Under the pieces are notes generated by a model. It worked only from the letters and a program-made list of their open reading frames with translations, had not been told where the DNA came from and did no database searches. Of a DNA stretch of 64,000 nt, positions 16,011 through 61,768 are shown piece by piece; positions within the stretch are counted from its first letter, which is position 1, and the number at the start of each line of letters is the position of its first letter. The translations under genes were made by a program, and so were the position numbers. The stretch comes from Eledone cirrhosa (taxonomy: Eukaryota). Location of the stretch: positions 35,402,001-35,466,000 of the forward strand of contig OZ024750.1 in the NCBI GenBank assembly GCA_964016885.1, written 5' to 3'.

Positions 16011-16252
16011 ATATCTATATATATATATCTATATATGTATAGGAAGACACAAAGCAGGCTTTGTTTATGAACGGCTAACAAATTTGTGTATTGGTAACAC
16101 ATTGGTCCAGCAAACCAAAGATGTGGGTTAGTGCCCCATGTATGGCAATACTCATCCTTTTTTTCTATTCAGAGGGGTTTTTTTAAATCCCAACTAACAG
16201 ACTAATTCAATTTAGTCAAATACGTTGTAAGCATGTTACTACCTAATTTATA

Positions 16253-21094: not shown

Positions 21095-24000
21095 TTTTAC
21101 ATTGTAACATACATGTTTTTCTATATTATCCATACATCTATAACATCAAACTGTAGAGAGCTATACCTCACACTAAACTGTAACATAGTTTTTCTATATT
21201 ATCCAGACATCTACAACATCAAACTGTAGACAGCTATACCTCACACTAAACAGTAACATAGTTTTTCTATATTATCCAGACATCTACAACATCAAACTAT
21301 AGACAGCTATACCTCACACTAAACTGTAACATAGTTTTTCTATATTATCCATACATCTATAACATCAAACTGTAGACAGCTATACCTCACAGTAAACTGT
21401 AACATATAGTTTTTCTATATTATCCATACATCTACAACATCAAACTATAGACAGCTATACCTCACACTAAACTGTAACATATAGTTTTTCTATATTATCC
21501 ATACATCTACAACATCAAACTGTAGACAGCTATACCTCACACTAAACTGTAACATATAGTTTTTCTATATTAACCATACATCTATAACATCAAACTGTAG
21601 ACAGCTATACCTCACACTAAACTGTAACATATAGTTTTTCTATTTTAACCATACATCTATAACATCAAACTGTAGACAGCTATACCTCACACTAAACTGT
21701 AACATATAGTTTTTCTATATTAACCATACATCTATAACATCAAACTGTAGACAGCTATACCTCACACTAAACTGTAACATATAGTTTTTCTATATTATCC
21801 ATACATCTATAACATCAAACTGTAGACAGCTATACCTCACACTAAACTGTAACATATAGTTTTTCTATATTATCCATACATCTATAACATCAAACTGTAG
21901 ACAGCTAAACCTCACACTAAACTGTAACATATAGTTTTTCTATATTATCCAGACATCTACAACATCAAACTGTAGACAGCTATGCCTCACACTAAACTGT
22001 AACATATAGTTTTTTCTATATTAACCATACATCTACAACATCAAACTGTAGACAGCTATGCCTCACACTAAACTGTAACATATAGTTTTTCTATATTAAC
22101 CATACATCTACAACATCAAACTATAGACAGCTATACCTCACACTAAACTGTAACATATAGTTTTTCTATATTAACCATACATCTATAACATCAAACTGTA
22201 GACAGCTATACCTCACACTAAACTGTAACATATAGTTTTTCTATATTAACCATACATCTATAACATCAAACTATAGACAGCTATACCTCACACTAAACTG
22301 TAACATATAGTTTTTCTATATTAACCATACATCTATAACATCAAACTGTAGACAGCTATGCCTCACACTAAACTGTAACATATAGTTTTTCTATATTAAC
22401 CATACATCTATAACATCAAACTGTAGACAGCTATGCCTCACACTAAACTGTAACATATAGTTTTTCTATATTAACCATACATCTATAACATCAAACTGTA
22501 GACAGCTATGCCTCACACTAAACTGTAACATATAGTTTTTCTATATTATCCATACATCTACAACATCAAACTGTAGACAGCTATACCTCACACTAAACTG
22601 TAACATACAGTTTTTCTATATTATCCATACATCTACAACATCAAACTGTAGACAGCTATACCTCACACTAAACTGTAACATATAGTTTTTCTATATTAAC
22701 CATACATCTACAACATCAAACTATAGACAGCTATACCTCACACTAAACTGTAACATATAGTTTTTCTATATTATCCATACATCTACAACATCAAACTGTA
22801 GACAGCTATACCTCACACTAAACTGTAACATAGTTTTTCTATATTATCCATACATCTACAACATCAAACTGTAGACAGCTATACCTCACACTAAACTGTA
22901 ACATATAGTCTTTCTATATTATCCATACATCTATAACATCAAACTGTAGACAGCTATACCTCACACTAAACTGTAACAACTAGTTTTTTTATATTATCCA
23001 TACATCTACAACATCAAACTGTAGACAGCTATACCTCACACTAAACTGTAACATATAGTTTTTCTATATTAACCATACATCTATAACATCAAACTGTAGA
23101 CAGCTATACCTCACACTAAACTGTAACATATAGTTTTTCTATTTTAACCATACATCTATAACATCAAACTGTAGACAGCTATACCTCACACTAAACTGTA
23201 ACATATAGTTTTTCTATATTAACCATACATCTATAACATCAAACTGTAGACAGCTATACCTCACACTAAACTGTAACATATAGTTTTTCTATATTAACCA
23301 TACATCTATAACATCAAACTGTAGACAGCTATACCTCACACTAAACTGTAACATATAGTTTTTCTATATTATCCATACATCTATAACATCAAACTGTAGA
23401 CAGCTATACCTCACACTAAACTGTAACATATAGTTTTTCTATATTATCCATACATCTATAACATCAAACTGTAGACAGCTAAACCTCACACTAAACTGTA
23501 ACATATAGTTTTTCTATATTATCCAGACATCTACAACATCAAACTGTAGACAGCTATGCCTCACACTAAACTGTAACATATAGTTTTTCTATATTAACCA
23601 TACATCTACAACATCAAACTGTAGACAGCTATGCCTCACACTAAACTGTAACATATAGTTTTTCTATATTAACCATACATCTACAACATCAAACTATAGA
23701 CAGCTATACCTCACACTAAACTGTAACATATAGTTTTTCTATATTAACCATACATCTATAACATCAAACTGTAGACAGCTATGCCTCACACTAAACTGTA
23801 ACATATAGTTTTTCTATATTAACCATACATCTATAACATCAAACTGTAGACAGCTATGCCTCACACTAAACTGTAACATATAGTTTTTCTATATTAACCA
23901 TACATCTATAACATCAAACTGTAGACAGCTATGCCTCACACTAAACTGTAACATATAGTTTTTCTATATTATCCATACATCTACAACATCAAACTGTAGA

Positions 24001-26705
24001 CAGCTATACCTCACACTAAACTGTAACATACAGTTTTTCTATATTATCCATACATCTACAACATCAAACTGTAGACAGCTATACCTCACACTAAACTGTA
24101 ACATATAGTTTTTCTATATTAACCATACATCTATAACATCAAACTGTAGACAGCTATACCTCACACTAAACTGTAACATATAGTTTTTCTATATTATCCA
24201 TACATCTACAACATCAAACTATAGACAGCTATACCTCACACTAAACTGTAACATATAGTTTTTCTATATTATCCATACATCTACAACATCAAACTATAGA
24301 CAGCTATACCTCACACTAAACTGTAACATATAGTTTTTCTATATTATCCATACATCTACAACATCAAACTGTAGACAGCTATACCTCACACTAAACTGTA
24401 ACATATAGTTTTTCTATATTATCCATACATCTACAACATCAAACTGTAGACAGCTGTACCTCACACTAAACTGTAACATATAGTTTTTCTATATTATCCA
24501 TACATCTATAACATCAAACTGTAGACAGCTATACCTCACACTAAACTGTAACATATAGTTTTTCTATATTAACCATACATCTACAACATCAAACTGTAGA
24601 CAGCTATACCTCACACTAAACTGTAACATAGTTTTTCTATATTATCCATACATCTACAACATCAAACTGTAGACAGCTATACCTCACACTAAACTGTAAC
24701 ATATAGTCTTTCTATATTATCCATACATCTATAACATCAAACTGTAGACAGCTATACCTCACACTAAACTGTAACATATAGTTTTTTTATATTATCCATA
24801 CATCTATAACATCAAACTGTAGACAGCTATGCCTCACACTAAACTGTAACATATAGTTTTTTTATATTATCCATACATCTACAACATCAAACTGTAGACA
24901 GCTATACCTCACACTAAACTGTAACATATAGTTTTTCTATATTATCCATACATCTATAACATCAAACTGTAGACAGCTATACCTCACACTAAACTGTAAC
25001 AACTAGTTTTTTTATATTATCCATACATCTACAACATCAAACTGTAGACAGCTATACCTCACACTAAACTGTAACATATAGTTTTTCTATATTATCCATA
25101 CATCTACAACATGAAACTGTAGACAGCTATACCTCACACTAAACTGTAACATATAGTTTTTCTATATTATCCATACATCTATAACATCAAACTGTAGACA
25201 GCTATACCTCACACTAAACTGTAACAACTAGTTTTTCTATATTATCCATACATCTACAACATCAAACTGTAGACAGCTATACCTCACATTAAACTGTAAC
25301 ATATAGTTTTTCTATATTATCCATACATCTACAACATGAAACTGTAGACAGCTATACCTCACACTAAACTGTAACATATAGTTTTTCTATATTAACCATA
25401 CATCTACAACATCAAACTATAGACAGCTATACCTCACACTAAACTGTAACATATAGTTTTTCTATATTAACCATACATCTATAACATCAAACTGTAGACA
25501 GCTATGCCTCACACTAAACTGTAACATATAGTTTTTCTATATTAACCATACATCTATAACATCAAACTGTAGACAGCTATGCCTCACACTAAACTGTAAC
25601 ATATAGTTTTTCTATATTAACCATACATCTATAACATCAAACTGTAGACAGCTATGCCTCACACTAAACTGTAACATATAGTTTTTCTATATTATCCATA
25701 CATCTACAACATCAAACTGTAGACAGCTATACCTCACACTAAACTGTAACATACAGTTTTTCTATATTATCCATACATCTACAACATCAAACTGTAGACA
25801 GCTATACCTCACACTAAACTGTAACATATAGTTTTTCTATATTAACCATACATCTACAACATCAAACTGTAGACAGCTATACCTCACACTAAACTGTAAC
25901 ATATAGTTTTTCTATATTAACCATACATCTATAACATCAAACTGTAGACAGCTATACCTCACACTAAACTGTAACATATAGTTTTTCTATATTATCCATA
26001 CATCTACAACATCAAACTGTAGACAGCTATACCTCACACTAAACTGTAACATATAGTTTTTCTATATTATCCATACATCTACAACATCAAACTGTAGACA
26101 GCTATACCTCACACTAAACTGTAACATATAGTTTTTCTATATTATCCATACATCTATAACATCAAACTGTAGACAGCTATACCTCACACTAAACTGTAAC
26201 AACTATTTTTTTTCTATTATCCATACATCTACAACATCAAACTGTAGACAGCTATACCTCACACTAAACTGTAACATATAGTTTTTCTATATTATCCATA
26301 CATCTACAACATCAAACTGTAGACAGCTATACCTCACACTAAACTGTAACATATAGTTTTTCTATATTATCCATACATCTATAACATCAAACTGTAGACA
26401 GCTATACCTCACACTAAGCTGTAACATATAGTTTTTCTATATTAACCATACATCTATAACATCAAACTGTAGACAGCTATACCTCACACTAAACTGTAAC
26501 ATATAGTTTTTCTATATTATCCATACATCTACAACATCAAACTGTAGACAGCTATACCTCACACTAAACTGTAACATATAGTTTTTCTATATTATCCATA
26601 CATCTATAACATCAAACTGTAGACAGCTATACCTCACACTAAACTGTAACATTGTTTTTCTATATTATCCATACATCTATAACATCAAACTGTAGACAGC
26701 TATAA
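21095..26705. repeat. 75-bp satellite array, about 75 copies (5.6 kb)
   Basis: Unit ATACATCTATAACATCAAACTGTAGACAGCTATACCTCACACTAAACTGTAACATATAGTTTTTCTATATTATCC, highly homogeneous. Confidence 0.98.
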
Positions 26706-29002: not shown

Positions 29003-29256
29003 AATTACAACAGTGGTCCATTCCAGACAGTCTGGAATTTGCTGCCAAAACAGCAAGAGCTCAGCTGTTGGGCCCCAACTCTCTAATATATTTACACTCT
29101 ACTATACCAAGTATCAAGTACTCTGCTGAAAATAGTATTAGTTGTTTAAAACTGATAAAATCTTGATCTATATATGTATATATATGTGTGTGTATATATT
29201 TAACATCCACTTATGTATGTGTTTGTGTATGTATATATGTATATATATATATATAA

Positions 29257-31667: not shown

Positions 31668-32020
31668 CATCATTTCATTTCATCATCATCATTTCATTTT
31701 ACATCCGCTTTTCTCTGCTTGCAAGGGTGGGACGGGAACTGATTCTGGCTTGATTTCTACAGCTGGATGCCCTTCCTAACACCAACCTCATTTACAGTGA
31801 GTGCTGGGTGCCTTTTTGCCGTGGCGCCCCCACAACCACTTTGCAGTGGAATGATAGGGACCCTAGTCCCTATCATCTCATTTCTACAGCTGAGTAAACT
31901 GGAGCAATGTGAAATAAAGTGTCTTGCTCAAGGAAACAACACATCACCCGGTCTGAGAATTGAACTCACAACCTTTTGATTGCAAGCCCAATGCTCTAAC
32001 CACTGAGCCGTGTGCCTCCA
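31668..32020 (-). mobile_element. SINE family A, full length
   Basis: Reverse complement of 17421-17750. Confidence 0.9.
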
Positions 32021-47485: not shown

Positions 47486-47532
<47 letters not shown>

Positions 47533-47534
<2 letters not shown>

Positions 47535-47739
47535 CGAAGGAAATGTGGTAAGGAACCAGATGGACCATAACGCACCAAAGTACTGAATACTTAGGGTAGT
47601 AGAGTGGATAATAGGAACAAGTAAGACCCCGACGGCAGAGCTCAAGCCGTTTGGACGGCTAATTCTGGACATTTTTTTAGTCCAGAATTAGCCGTCGAAA
47701 CGGCTTGAGCTCTGCCGTCGGGGTCTTACTTGTTCCTAT
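47533..47739. mobile_element. palindromic short element in (TA)n with the 3' half of a hammerhead (family P, copy 1)
   Basis: 60-bp arms at 47611-47670 and 47680-47739 with one mismatch; contains GAAA-CGGC-TTGAGCTCT-GCCG-TC; other copies at 56108 and 60513. Confidence 0.8.
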
Positions 47740-54669: not shown

Positions 54670-56100
54670 ATCTGTCGTCTTTCATGCGCATCATGTGACC
54701 ATACCAACGTAATCTTCTCTCAAGTAATCAGCATCTGATCCCTCTTATTCCTAATTTCTCACTTAGTTCATTTATGTTTTACCGTTCATGTATATTACTA
54801 TTACACAGCCAATGGAGCATGCATGCTTCATTCCTTTCCAGTCTGTGCAGGTCTTCTGCACACAATTTCCATGTCTCACTGCCATGTAACATAGCTGTTT
54901 GTATACAGGCATCATACAATCTGCCTTTCATATTTAGAGAGAAACCTTTAGCAGCCAATAGTGGTATAAGCTCTCTGAACTTTTTCCATCCCATTCTGAC
55001 TCTGGCGACTGTACTTTCAGAGCACTCTCCACCACTGCTGATTTTGTCACCCAGGTAACGGAAAGTGTCCACTATTTCTATAGAACCATCTGGGCAATAG
55101 AAGGAGCTAGTATCCGATAGGCACTTGCTACTTATTGCACCTGAGCATCGGCCACATATAAAATCTACATTTTTAGATAGCTTGCCTGTGATCCCACTAC
55201 ATCTTTTATGTACCCATAGTTTGCATTTGGAACATAAAATGAAATTTCTACTTACTGCTTTCCTATATAGTGAGCATGGCCATTTCTCAGAGGGCACCTG
55301 TGCCCTATTTTCCTTTCTACATACAAGAACTTTAGTCTTAAACAAGTTAACTTTAAGGCCTGTTGATTCTAAGCCATGCTTCCATGTTTGGAATTTCTTC
55401 TCTAGTTCAGCCATAGATTCAGCTATGAGAGTTAAATCATCTGCATATAGAAGTTCCCATGGGCAGCCAGTCTTAAACTCCTCTGTTATAGCCTGTAAGA
55501 TGATAATAAACAGGAGGGGGCTAAGGACAGAGCCTTGATGAACACCAACTTTTATGCTAAATTCTTCACTATATTCATTGTTAATTCTAACCTTGCTGAC
55601 TGTACATGGCTTATATAGCTCTCACAAGCCATTCATCTAGTCCTAGTTTTCTAAGGGACTACCAGATAATGGACTGTGGGACTCTGTCGAAGGCTTTCTC
55701 CAACTCAACATACTTCCAAGCCTGTTTTTTGGCTTTGATTGTCTCCTCTACCTTACTGTTCCACCACCAAGTTACTCTCCTCCTGCCTATAGGTCTGCTC
55801 CAGCCGCAGATTTCATCTGTTGCCTTCAGCAGGTTAACTTTCAGGAATTCCCACTGTTCCTCTATGTTGTACGTCTCTAATTGCTCTTCCTTACTGTCAA
55901 AAGCATCAAGTAATATGCTTTTAAATTTATCACTGGCTGTGGGCACCTTCAACTTCCATATTCTTCTCCTCAAGGTAGTCCTCCTCTGTTGTCGAGTATG
56001 TCTAGTCCTGACTATGATGTCACTAACTTCTTGGCTATGTTGGGAGGTACAATCATGGGGGGGACTTAGTGTTTACAACAGACACACTGTCACGTCTTCT
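54670..56100 (-). mobile_element. RTE LINE, internally deleted and 3'-truncated (APE end + RT + PHD)
   Basis: ORFs 55659-55973 (RRRIWKLK..WWWNSKV..AWK fused to LEKAFDRV) and 54779-55414 (KVNLFKTK..WVHKRC..FRYLG). Confidence 0.92.
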
Positions 56101-56107
56101 AATTTAA

Positions 56108-56256
56108 TTTCAACGGCTATTTCTGGACTCTGGAGTCCAGAAATAGCCGTCGAAACGGCTTGAGCTCTGCTGTTGGGGTTAAACATTTTCCTATTACCCA
56201 CTCTACTACCCTAAGTATTGAGTACTCTGGTGCGTTATGGTCCATCTGGTTCCTTT
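56108..56256 (+). mobile_element. family P element, copy 2
   Basis: ACGGCTATTTCTGGAC-TCTGGA-GTCCAGAAATAGCCGTC-GAAA-CGGC.. followed by the family body CCTATTACCCACTCTACTACCCTAAG.. Confidence 0.8.
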
Positions 56257-56260
56257 TACG

Positions 56261-56381
56261 ATCTGAGTTCAAATCCCGCCGAGGTTGACTTTGCCTTTCA
56301 TCCTTACGGGGTCGATAAAATAAAGTACCAGTAATACACTGGGTAATTGCTGGCCTTGTGCCAAAAGTAGAAACAATTATA
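56261..56381 (+). mobile_element. SINE family B, 3' half
   Basis: Family consensus match. Confidence 0.9.
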
Positions 56382-56384
56382 TAT

Positions 56385-57671
56385 ATCATCATCATCATTG
56401 TTTAACGTCCATCTTCCACGGTTGCATGGGTTTCAACGGGAGTTTTCCCACTTGAGGCAAGAGTGGTTGTCTTGCTCGTATAGGCCTGTCTAGCGGATTT
56501 TCTACGGCTGGATGCCCTTCCTAACACCAACCACGTTTACAGTGAGGACTGGGAGGTTTTACCGTGTTACCTACACGGCCACATTACAGCGTGGACTGTG
56601 TGTTTTTTTGTCGTGACACCTACACAACCTCATTTGTTTCGGACTGGATGTTGTGGCACCAACATAACTTTAAATTGAAAAGGGTGGTGTGGATGGGGTG
56701 GGGGTAGTGGGACGGGTGTGTATTTTGTTAGAGGTGCCTACTGACTGTAGTAGGTTTCACTTTGTACTTAGGTAAGGCGGGTCTTCTGTATTACTGTGTA
56801 GCGCCAAAGATCTTGGTCCAGTGACATTGTCTTGGAGAGGTGTAAGTGTGTGAGGTCGGAATTTATCAGGTCGTCCCAGGTTTTTCTGGGTCTGCCTACT
56901 CCGTGGCTACCGACTATTTTTATTGCCCTGCACTTTTTTATACAGCTGTCGTCTTTCATGCGCATCACGTGACTGTACCAACGTAGTCTTCTCTTGAGTA
57001 AATAACATCTGATCCCTCTTATTTCTAATTTTTCCCTTAGTTCGTTTATGCTTTGCCGTTCATGTATATTACTATTACACATCCAGCGGAGCATGCAAGC
57101 TTCGTTCCTCTCCAGTCTGCGTATATCCTCTGCACACAATGCCCAGGTCTCACTGCCATGCAACATTGCTGTTCGTATGCAGGCATCATACAGCCTGCCT
57201 TTCATTTTTAGAGAGAACCCTTTAGCGGCTAATAGTGGTAAAAGCTCTCGGAACTTTTTCCATCCAGTTCTGACTCTAGCTACTGTACTTTCAGAGCACC
57301 CTCCACCACTGCTGATTTTGTCACCCAAGTAACGGAAGGTGTCCACTATTTCTATAGAACCATCTGTGCAATGGAATGAGCTAGTATTCAGTGGGCACTT
57401 GCTGCTACTTATTGCACCAGAGCACCGGCCACATATAAAATCTATATTCTTAGTTAGCTTACCTGTGATCCCACTACATCTTTTATGCACCCATACTTTG
57501 CATTTGGGACATAAAATAGAGTTTCTGCCTACTCCTTTCCTACACACTGAGCATGACCCTTTCCCGGATGGGACCGGTGCCCTATTTTCCTTCCTACAAA
57601 CTAGAACTTTAGTCTTAGACAGGTTAATTTTAAGGCCTTTTGATTCTAGGCCATGCTTCCATGTTTGGAAT
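56385..57671 (-). mobile_element. 5'-truncated RTE LINE with intact C-terminus and 3' UTR
   Basis: ORF 56768-57547 (PHD, FRYLG, RWYSHV, GRPRKTW, DQDLWR) plus 3' UTR and (GAT)n. Confidence 0.95.
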
Positions 57672-57776
57672 ATGTGTCACCAATCAATAAACATAATGAA
57701 GGCTTAACAAATCATCCTTGTATTATTATATATATATATTTGTTTTATATATTATTTATATACACACACACACACG

Positions 57777-57833
<57 letters not shown>

Positions 57834-57836
<3 letters not shown>

Positions 57837-59660
57837 ATTGTCGGGGAGAAGTGTGTACTTAACGATGACGGCATACTTGCCATCACCAACGCCGATAAGA
57901 AGGTAGCTTGGAAGTGTCACTATGAAAGGCTACTAAATGAGGAGAATAAATGGGAGAAAGACAGTCTCCCCCACATTGACCCAATAGAGGGACCAGCAGT
58001 GTTAGTCGAAGGTAGTATAATAAGTAAGGCAATCAAAGATATGAAGACAGGCAAGGCGACTGGGCCTTCGGAAATAGTTGCCGAGATGCTGAAGGCATCT
58101 GGTACGGTGGGACACACCATGGTCACCCGGATAGTCAACCAAGTCATACAGAATGGGGTTGTTCCGAAGGACTGGCGTAGCAGCATTATCGTTAACTGTT
58201 ATAAGGGTAAAGAAGATGCCCTAGATAGGAGTAACTATAGAGGCATTAAATTAATCGACCAGGTCATGAAGGTCACGGAAAAAGTAATAGCGCAACTAAT
58301 CAGAGAGAGAATTGATCTAGATGAAATGCAGTTCGGGTTTGTGTCAGGAAAAAGTACCACAGACGCTCTTTTCATTGTACGACAACTACAGGAGAAGTAC
58401 CTAGCTAAAAGTAAACCCCTATACTTAGCTTTCGTCGACTTGGAGAAGGCCTTCGACAGAGTCCCCCGTTCCATTATCTGGTGGGCTCTTAGAAAACTAG
58501 GTGTTGATGAATGGCTTGTGAGAGCTATACAAGCCATGTATAAAGAAACAGTCAGCAAGGTTAGAATTAACAACGAATATAGTGAAGAGTTTAGTGTAAA
58601 AGTTGGTGTTCATCAGAACTCTGTTCTTAGCCCCCTACTATTTATTATTGCCCTCCAGGCTATAACAGTGGAGTTCAAGACCGGCTGCCCATGGGAACTC
58701 CTATACGCAGATGATCTAACGCTCATAGCTGAATCAATGGCCGAGCTAGAGAAGAAATTCCAAACATGGAAGCACGGCCTAGAATCAAAAGGCCTTAAAA
58801 TTAACCTGGCTAAGACTAAAGTTCTAGTTTGTAAGAAAGAAAATAAGGCGGCGGTCCCCTCCGGGAAGTGGCCATGTGCAGAGTGTAGGAAAGGCGTAGG
58901 TAGAAATTCCATTTTGTGTCCCAAATGCAAAGTTTGGGTGCATAAAAGATGTAGTGGGATCACAGGTAAGCTAACTAAGAACATAGATTTTACATGTGGC
59001 CGGTGTTCTGGGGAAATAAGTAGCAGCAAGTGCCCACTGAATACTAGCTCTTTCAACTGCGCAGAGGGTTCTATAGAAATAGTGGACAGCTTCCGTTACC
59101 TGGGGGACAAAATCAGCAGTGGGGGAGGGTGCTCTGAAAGTACAGTAGCTAGAGTCAGAACTGGGTGGAAAAAGTTCAGAGAGCTTATACCACTATTAGC
59201 TGTTAAAGGGTTCTCCCTAAAAATGAAAAGCAGGCTGTACGATGCCTGCATACGAACAGCAATGTTGCATGGCAGTGAGACCTGGGCATTGTGTGCAGAG
59301 GATATACGCAGACAAGAGAGAAACGAAGCTTGCATGCTCCGCTGGATGTGTAATAGTAATATACGTGAACGACAAAGCATAAACGAACTAAGGAAAAAAT
59401 TAGAAATAAGAGGGATCAGATGTTGTTTACTAGAGAGAAGGCTACGTTGGTATGGTCACGTGATGTGCATGAAGGACGATAGCTGTATAACAAAGTGCAG
59501 GGCAATAAAGATAGACGGTAGCCACGGAATAGGCAGACCCAGAAAAACCTGGGACGAGCTGATAAACTCCGACCTCACACACTGACACCTCACCAAGACA
59601 ATGTCACTGGACCGAGACCTTTGGCGGTACTCAGTAATAGAGAAGACCTGCCTTACCTAA
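57834..59660 (+). pseudogene. RTE ORF2 remnant: reverse transcriptase with an inserted PHD-type zinc finger
   Basis: GKATGP, NYRGIKL, QFGF, FVDLEKAFDRVP, GVHQNSVLSPLLF, LYADD, KTK, FRYLG; premature TGA at 59583-59585, natural stop at 59658-59660 by comparison with the 56768 copy; no 5' end or APE domain. Confidence 0.92.

Positions 59661-60048: not shown

Positions 60049-60051
<3 letters not shown>
57834..60051 (+). mobile_element. 5'-truncated RTE-clade LINE (young copy)
   Basis: Frame open from 57834 (DIVGEKC..) through the RT motifs to the 3' UTR and (GAT)n; bounded by (TA)n on both sides. Confidence 0.95.
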
Positions 60052-60140
<89 letters not shown>

Positions 60141-60147
<7 letters not shown>

Positions 60148-60441
60148 AACAAAAGATGGTTAAAAGAGTTCCATGTATTTTATTATGCGCATTTCAAAAA
60201 CAAATATCATCATGCAATAATATTTGTGTTTTCATCAGATAAAATCAGATAATATCTGATAAAAACACAAATATTATTGGATGATGATATTTGTTTTTGA
60301 AATGCGCATAATAAAATACATGGAACTCTTTTAACCATCTTTTGTTCTTATATATTATGTATACTCCAGTCCTACAAACTGTAGAGTGCTTCTCATCCGA
60401 TATCTGCATTGCTTTATTGTACTACAATAAAACTCACCTCC

Positions 60442-60445
<4 letters not shown>
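60141..60445. mobile_element. palindromic Penelope-like/retrozyme-like element between (TA)n tracts
   Basis: Near-perfect ~100-bp inverted arms (about 60141-60241 and 60254-60354), each a hammerhead sequence. Confidence 0.8.
60177..60245 (-). ncRNA. type I hammerhead ribozyme (all core nucleotides present)
   Basis: AUUUUAU-CUGAUGA-[AAACACAAAUAUUAU..AUGAUAUUUGUUUUU]-GAAA-UGCGCA-UA-AUAAAAU: 7-bp perfect stem I, ~15-bp stem II, palindromic AUGCGCAU stem III, AUA cleavage triplet. Confidence 0.75.
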
Positions 60446-60512
<67 letters not shown>

Positions 60513-60517
<5 letters not shown>

Positions 60518-60653
60518 AACCAGTAAGACCCCGACAGCTGAGCTCAAGCCGTTTCGACGGCTAATTCTGGACTATTACCCACTCTACTACCTCAAGTATT
60601 GAGTACTTTGGTGCGTTATGGTCCACCTGGTTCCTTACCACATTTCCTTCGTT
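60513..60653. mobile_element. family P element, copy 3 (inverted 5' arm joined to body)
   Basis: TAGGAAC..GCCGTTTCGACGGCTAATTCTGGAC joined to TATTACCCACTCTAC..CCTTCGTT; (TA)n on both sides. Confidence 0.8.
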
Positions 60654-61392: not shown

Positions 61393-61768
61393 TAAGCTAT
61401 TGGTCATCAATAGGCTATTGGTCATCTGATTGTGAACCAAGGTGGCCTGAAACAGACTTTGGACATCAATAGGCTATTGGTCATCTGATTGTGAACCAAG
61501 GTGACATGAAACAGACTTTGGACATCAATAGGCTATTGGTCATCTGATTGTGAACCAAGGTGACATGAAACAGACTCTGGACATCAATAGGCTATTGGTC
61601 ATCTGATTTTGACCGAGGGTGGTCTGAAACAGTCTGGACATCAATAGGTTATTGGTCATCTGGTTGTTTGTGAGTCAAGTGGCCTGAATCAGACTCTGGA
61701 CTTCAATAGATTGTTGGTCATCTGATTGTTTATGAGCCAAGGTGGCCTGAAACAGACTGGACATCAAT
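61393..61768. repeat. ~59-bp minisatellite, about 6 copies
   Basis: Unit CATCAATAGGCTATTGGTCATCTGATTGTGAACCAAGGTGACATGAAACAGACTTTGGA. Confidence 0.92.

Follow-up and report, generated by a model that had tools for sequence, protein, structure and literature searches.

Insertions of Penelope-like elements (PLEs) are described as adjoining an inverted, 5′-truncated pLTR copy, with a tail on one side only and palindromes at the junctions (PMC3846280; PMC8557442). Self-priming has been proposed as the source of such fold-backs (PMC3846280). Two PLE groups, Naiad and Hydra, target (TA)n (PMC8557442). In vitro, an anole PLE protein cuts and extends both target strands with uncleaved RNA as the template, and two internal starts of reverse transcription bound the tail (PMC11167929).

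PLEs also carry hammerhead ribozymes, which cleave as dimers (PMC4209133; PMC6765202). Pairs of hammerheads that lie on opposite strands, 100 to 700 bp apart, have been read as truncated PLEs (PMC4209133). The search for PLE hammerheads described in PMC8557442 covered core spacings of 7 to 17 nt, and eight families with spacings of 35 to 50 nt were set aside. Among cephalopods, recently active Penelope-like families are reported from Octopus vulgaris, in a report that makes no mention of ribozymes (PMC13282606).

Here, we analyze a palindromic locus in a 64-kb stretch of Eledone cirrhosa DNA (hereafter the window). We conclude that the locus is probably a short, 5′-truncated, head-to-head pair of a high-copy repeat, which likely represents the pLTR terminus of a PLE or of an element that depends on PLEs, and which likely results from a single insertion into a (TA)n tract. 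Its ribozyme motif resembles those of PLEs and has a helix II of unusual length.

Architecture of the locus

The palindrome has two arms of 108 nt each (60139–60246 and 60248–60355), which are 96% complementary, with mismatches at 4 of 108 positions (60251, 60252, 60261, and 60280). An initial annotation, made from the letters alone, had described a palindrome of ~210 bp with a hammerhead in one arm, which our analysis confirms. It had also taken these ~210 bp to be the whole unit between the (TA)n tracts. However, another ~90 nt follow on the right arm, up to 60445, and the unit flanked by (TA)n tracts is thus about 300 bp long (60146–60445). Its parts follow the order inverted arm, 7-nt templated junction, direct arm, and ~90-nt one-sided tail, with a (TA)n tract as the host site.

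The left (TA)n tract (60051–60145) is the likely insertion target. It is preceded by a LINE that terminates, with a (GAT)n tail, near 60050. The inverted, 5′-truncated arm (60146–60245, minus strand) runs from helix I to the common 3′ end of the family and bears the intact hammerhead motif. This arm is followed by a junction insert of 7 nt (60246–60252) that does not belong to the family and is a templated duplication: Positions 60244–60252 repeat 60234–60242 exactly (9 nt), and the 7 nt of the junction lie within that repeat. The direct, 5′-truncated arm (60253–60355, plus strand) retains 3 bp of helix I and has two private changes, one in the core (G8; 60261) and one in loop II (60280). Truncation falls about 7 nt before the core in the left arm and 3 nt before it in the right arm, and the inverted arm extends 4 family bases beyond the direct arm. 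The one-sided tail of ~90 nt (60356–60445, plus strand) is family sequence, with a small hairpin (60413–60431) and then a purine-poor, AC-rich end. The right (TA)n tract (60445–60515) is common to a neighboring insertion of a second family.

The arms, each ~101 nt long, differ by two substitutions, or about 1% per arm (95% range, 0.1 to 3.5%). Judged by this low sequence divergence, the insertion may be young.

Several LINE copies occupy 54779–59585 and the region up to about 60050. In these copies, a PHD-like finger comes after a reverse transcriptase (RT) domain and the tails are (GAT)n; the last copy abuts the left (TA)n tract. An open frame of at least 43 codons runs through the tail of the palindromic unit (60315–60445, with an ATG at 60357), in a region where the family often has a 2-nt deletion near 60349. 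We rejected this frame as a coding gene because it has no Pfam family and a protein search with its 43 codons gave five weak matches, all to repetitive proteins and none to a PLE. A six-frame motif scan of the window gave no convincing PLE motif (RT or GIY-YIG), and the upstream family sequence is visible for 30 letters.

A hammerhead motif with a long helix II

A descriptor scan found a type I hammerhead motif, with core and three helices and open at helix I, on the minus strand at 60177–60245. This is the sole match in the window. The conserved core elements (CUGANGA, GAAA, and NUH) and the three helices of a type I hammerhead are present. Helix I pairs 60245–60239 with 60183–60177 (7 bp), and the core is intact (60238–60232, with GAAA at 60195–60192). 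Helix II (60231–60196) pairs at 15 of 16 positions, with 36 nt between the core halves, and helix III (60192–60185; 8 nt) is self-complementary and thus palindromic. Cleavage is predicted 3′ of 60184. Both this site and the complete minus-strand hammerhead, with its 7-bp helix I, intact core, and palindromic helix III, had been proposed in the initial annotation, and the descriptor arrives at the same structure and the same cut. The annotation had regarded the long helix II as unusual, and its length does stand out; the description of this helix as AU-only needs correction to AU-rich, as it contains one C-G pair and two U-G pairs. For the mirror copy, the annotation had given a CUGAUAA core and no partner for stem I. 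The core change is present (G8A at 60261), but 3 bp of helix I are kept.

A relaxed form of the descriptor matched 10 of 200 shuffled windows; the real motif lies well above the descriptor thresholds. Folded alone, helix II has a z score of −4.4 on the ribozyme strand, where none of 200 shuffles folds as well, and of −1.65 on the opposite strand, where 16 of 200 do. The whole 69-nt motif is no more stable than its shuffles (z = −0.5, with 60 of the 200 folding as well), and the lowest-energy fold of the isolated motif differs from the active fold. When two molecules are folded together, they form an 8-bp helix III duplex, but without helix I. Helix III costs +2.9 kcal/mol within one molecule, whereas the intermolecular 8-bp duplex has an energy of −10.5 kcal/mol. 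These energies fit cleavage as a dimer, as described for PLE hammerheads.

The Rfam hammerhead models, which had been suggested as a check on the motif, gave no match at the gathering score and none among the 45 matches at E ≤ 10. This is likely because the 36-nt helix II domain falls outside those models. Matches to Rfam miRNA families at E ≤ 10 reflect the hairpin only and were rejected. Pattern scans for the motif gave no hits in viral contigs or in prokaryote genomes, and the strict pattern gave none in metagenomes. A looser pattern matched at least 117 metagenomic loci (54 of 64 parts covered). We consider these to be chance matches: Helix I reached 4 bp or more in 0 of the 117 listed, and none was unit-like beyond the motif.

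A dispersed, high-copy family

A search of public sequencing data gave 12 matching runs from seven studies and eight organisms, of which three, all from one sample, contained at least half of the words. No RNA run is among the matching runs listed. Four of the 15 runs listed (X1, X4, X9, and X13) were aligned to 60226–60445 at 80% likeness, and runs with a share of 0.2 or less (X6–X8 and X10–X12) were left out of the evidence. Organism A contributed 2,900 contigs (X1) and 4,941 reads (X13) with family copies, and two other organisms contributed 5 contigs (X4) and 19 contigs (X9); contig depth was not taken as copy number.

In all four runs, the same non-palindromic family sequence lies upstream of 60253 (496 loose-ended reads in X13); the final letters of this sequence make helix I whole, as they do in the left arm. 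The family thus extends upstream of the center, and both arms of the locus are 5′-truncated. Many copies end in (TA)n near 60343–60363, where the left arm also ends: Loose ends of (TA)n are found behind 60363 in 52 contigs and 269 reads and behind 60343 in 46 contigs of X1. Several contigs join the ribozyme region to the tail. The family therefore has the PLE-like traits of high copy number with dispersal, a hammerhead near the 3′ end, and a (TA)n target.

At the mirror G8 position (60261), G is found in 546 of 572 reads and in nearly all contig depth. Since the family carries G here, the G8A change in the mirror copy is private decay, not design. The letters of the window at 60280 (C in 750 of 765 reads) and at 60394 are also private to this copy. 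In X13, 60301 is the end point of 1,142 reads and resembles the restriction cut of a reduced-representation run; a G>T variant at 60304 (helix III) was discounted because of these read ends.

No listed read or contig in the four runs spans the whole stretch. Depth at the center amounts to a few reads or one contig, compared with thousands over the arm, although palindromes may be under-read. Only one opposite-strand joint is listed (7 reads), and within the ribozyme family the fold-back is known from this locus alone. Seven X13 reads have a joint at 60269–60290, which is a 22-nt loss from helix II and possibly represents a short-helix copy.

Variation within the ribozyme

From 29 polymorphic positions listed, we dropped one outside the arm and three private to the window. 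The remaining 25, of which 14 lie within the 65-nt ribozyme span, are marginal counts above a 5% threshold rather than per-molecule covariation; reads under 80% likeness are lost, and the related copies are not independent observations for the statistics that follow. None of the 14 ribozyme polymorphisms falls at the 12 core positions (P = 0.04), and helix II holds 12 of them (P = 0.014 versus the rest); N7, the free position of the core, varies. Among nine paired variants in helix II, eight still pair on their own, and the ninth (C at 11.1) pairs with G at 10.1. Three further helix II variants are at unpaired sites. Both G at 10.1 and C at 11.1 are found in a minority of the family, and we infer that they occur together on one molecule as the canonical G10.1–C11.1 pair.

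Where A-U pairs vary, the A side has changed in five of six (P = 0.11; P = 0.03 without the compensated case). Changes from A to G account for 5 of 12 in helix II versus 0 of 12 downstream (P = 0.04). Pairing selection or subfamily history accounts for this excess; a speculative alternative is that it is an imprint of RNA editing. The loose-end consensus at 60281 and 60290 reveals two further subfamilies, both with G at 10.1, whose helix II differs but, judged by eye, is still long.

These patterns of sequence variation suggest that the hammerhead is under selection. Conservation among homologues, on which the initial annotation had staked its reading, is seen in the marginal counts, with no listed variants in the core and pairing kept in helix II. 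By contrast, the A-U at 10.1–11.1, which it had singled out as unusual, loses that status: A family minority has G and C at these positions, and Hydra-1_oBim also has A-U, as given in File S2 of PMC8557442.

A second family with the same geometry

The window contains an unrelated second family of fold-backs. Its palindrome at 47524–47739 has 60-nt arms, a 9-nt spacer, a tail of ~85 nt on one arm, and (TA)n on both sides. The arms resemble the 3′ half of a hammerhead (GAAA, a 5-bp helix III, and GUC), and no CUGANGA half is present in this palindrome. Shorter fold-backs of the family are found at 56108–56155 and 29020–29038. At 60516–60652, within the (TA)n tract that also hosts the ribozyme unit, an inverted arm is joined straight to the tail without a direct arm. 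Arms of the second family (at 47680, 56135, 60572, and 29030) start within about 2 nt of one family position, and their centers differ. The common arm start points to an RNA with a fixed 5′ end or to a strong stop of the RT. The differing centers imply that the fold-back likely arises during insertion rather than being a property of one unit.

Other repeats in the window include a long tandem array that repeats about every 75 bp (about 21100–26700) and a minisatellite in which a 59-bp unit is repeated 6.2 times (61401–61768). Two partial tRNA-like matches just over the Rfam threshold (16086–16139 and 31953–32009) are likely SINE heads.

Comparison with described elements

EN+ PLE insertion units (e.g., Penelope-13_HM; PMC3846280, PMC8557442) are like this locus in having a head-to-head inverted copy, a palindromic junction, and a one-sided tail. 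They are also alike in carrying a hammerhead within ~100 to 200 nt of the 3′ end and in their AT-rich target. They differ in that here both arms are cut back to the ribozyme, and the tail is ~90 nt long compared with 30 to 40 bp in the units described in those papers. Furthermore, these units carry an open reading frame (ORF) for RT and GIY-YIG, whereas our locus is known from a pLTR-like stub alone.

The ribozyme motif shares type I topology, an intact core, a palindromic helix III, and a longer-than-canonical helix II with metazoan PLE hammerheads (PMC4209133; PMC6765202). In the accounts given there, helix II has 6 to 8 bp, compared with 15 to 16 bp here (36 nt between core halves), and helix I has 2 to 5 bp, compared with 7 bp. 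The motif described here also has no extra base after A9, and A-U closes helix II in its subfamily. Hydra-clade PLEs (PMC8557442) likewise have a (TA)n target, a hammerhead near the 3′ end, and, in Hydra-1_oBim, an A-U closing pair. However, their helix II has 3 to 7 bp, and the Hydra-1_oBim motif differs in sequence. Spike-moss PLE-X hammerheads (PMC8557442 File S2) belong to type I and have a helix II insert of about 30 nt or more. These, the only long inserts among the hammerheads compared, differ in coming from a plant and from endonuclease-less elements targeted to 28S rDNA, and their insert is given as a long loop, not a continuous helix.

Short motifs of the ribozyme family (11) and of the second family (3) were not found in the cephalopod Naiad and Hydra records of the PMC8557442 supplement, where line breaks and cut cells can hide matches; two motifs matched unrelated elements. 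The 3′ ends of Naiad_Obim and Naiad_Ovul, as they appear in the records, are unlike this family by eye, and an undescribed Naiad is still compatible. A search of the literature on cephalopod PLE hammerheads and on the A10.1–U11.1 pair found nothing on this family.

Origin of the fold-back

The parent of this family might be a tandem non-LTR retrozyme, that is, a non-coding monomer of a few hundred nucleotides that is self-cleaved, circularized, and reinserted by a PLE, with the locus as its fold-back stub. Such retrozymes have been described as derived from PLEs and as having numerous dispersed monomers (10.64898/2026.07.22.740005; PMC7229834), and the family resembles them in its high copy number, its type I hammerhead under apparent selection, and its AT-rich sequence, non-coding as seen, in which no ORF was found. 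We nevertheless think this origin unlikely. The retrozymes of these reports have head-to-tail tandem monomers and canonical helix sizes, but no head-to-tail joint is listed in the four runs or present in the window (a monomer longer than about 260 nt is still compatible), and the helices here differ from the canonical 6 and 4 bp. The loose letters upstream also do not match the 3′ tail, and many copies end in (TA)n. Less probable again is an extended form of the view of the initial annotation, in which the palindrome itself is a mobile, self-cleaving unit with one live ribozyme, a purposely silenced mirror copy, and a regulatory fold-back. The near-perfect symmetry, single intact motif, and (TA)n at both ends would all fit such a unit. 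Against it, the family continues past the center, G8A is private, the duplication at the junction is a one-off, the ribozyme would be sequestered by the fold-back, and depth at the center is far below that on the arm (with the reservation on palindromes given above).

Palindromes are error-prone in sequencing, and no aligned record spans the whole stretch, as would be expected if a long read had folded back into a chimera during assembly. Such an artefact is very improbable at this locus, where the symmetry ends after 108 nt and gives way to unrelated flanks, the inverted arm stops exactly at the common 3′ end of the family, and the junction contains a templated insert; the second family repeats the same geometry. 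Insertion at TA of a MITE or a fold-back DNA transposon in which a hammerhead-like motif arose by chance would account for the TA flanks and long inverted arms, and is the least probable reading of all. It is largely refuted by the tail on one side and by the continuation of the family past the center, which is unlike terminal inverted repeats with a constant interior. Helix conservation is also strand-specific and the core invariant, and a helix I of at least 4 bp was absent from all 117 of the listed metagenomic core matches that we attribute to chance.

We thus return to a 5′-truncated, head-to-head insertion of PLE type. The link to Penelope-like pLTR hammerheads that the initial annotation had drawn is supported by both the family data and the published geometry. 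In such an insertion, the GIY-YIG endonuclease of the element would nick both strands of the (TA)n tract, and the reverse transcriptase would prime two cDNAs on uncleaved RNA, one at the common end and one at a second start ~90 nt further 3′. Both cDNAs would stop at helix I and would then be joined head to head by end joining, with a templated insert. We give this course of two-strand priming and end joining roughly an even chance. Snap-back self-priming with later trimming of the tip is a somewhat weaker contender; a simple covalent snap-back would not give an inverted arm that is 4 bases longer. The direct arm would later have gained its private mutations, including G8A.

In the parent element, the hammerhead would likely cleave tandem transcripts as a dimer via its palindromic helix III, slowly and perhaps with the assistance of a protein. 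In the locus described here, the two motifs lie in opposite orientations, and the energy of the fold-back is −137.5 or −140.0 kcal/mol, compared with −5.1 to −8.0 kcal/mol for the ribozyme fold. Read-through RNA would make the antisense arm first and would become trapped as a hairpin of ~100 bp. Because the modeled fold-back far outweighs the ribozyme fold, this copy is likely inert. The initial annotation had anticipated that the fold-back outcompetes ribozyme folding, and the difference between about −140 and about −8 kcal/mol agrees with this.

Significance

The fold-back architecture is already known, having been published as an insertion by-product of PLEs. What is new is a structurally unusual variant of the PLE-type hammerhead with a long helix II, although forms with a long helix II may have been reported before, in the main survey of PLE hammerhead variants by Luense et al. 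The locus itself is of little importance, as it is likely a single inert by-product in a family of thousands of copies. Fold-back stubs record both cDNA starts as well as the junction, and a genome-wide set of them could separate two-strand priming from snap-back self-priming in PLEs.

With its invariant core and 36-nt helix II domain, this high-copy family escapes both Rfam and the core spacing of 7 to 17 nt searched in PMC8557442, such that counts of PLE ribozymes may be too low. We also raise, as a tentative and rather unlikely extension, that this abundant family has an active and distinct class of long-helix-II hammerhead (15 to 16 bp, its structure retained from subfamily to subfamily), overlooked by Rfam and by published descriptors, in which the extra helix is functional. 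The helix might serve as a protein-binding handle, or as a duplex whose A-to-G excess records editing of the template RNA. If this is true, some PLE families listed as ribozyme-less would have a ribozyme.
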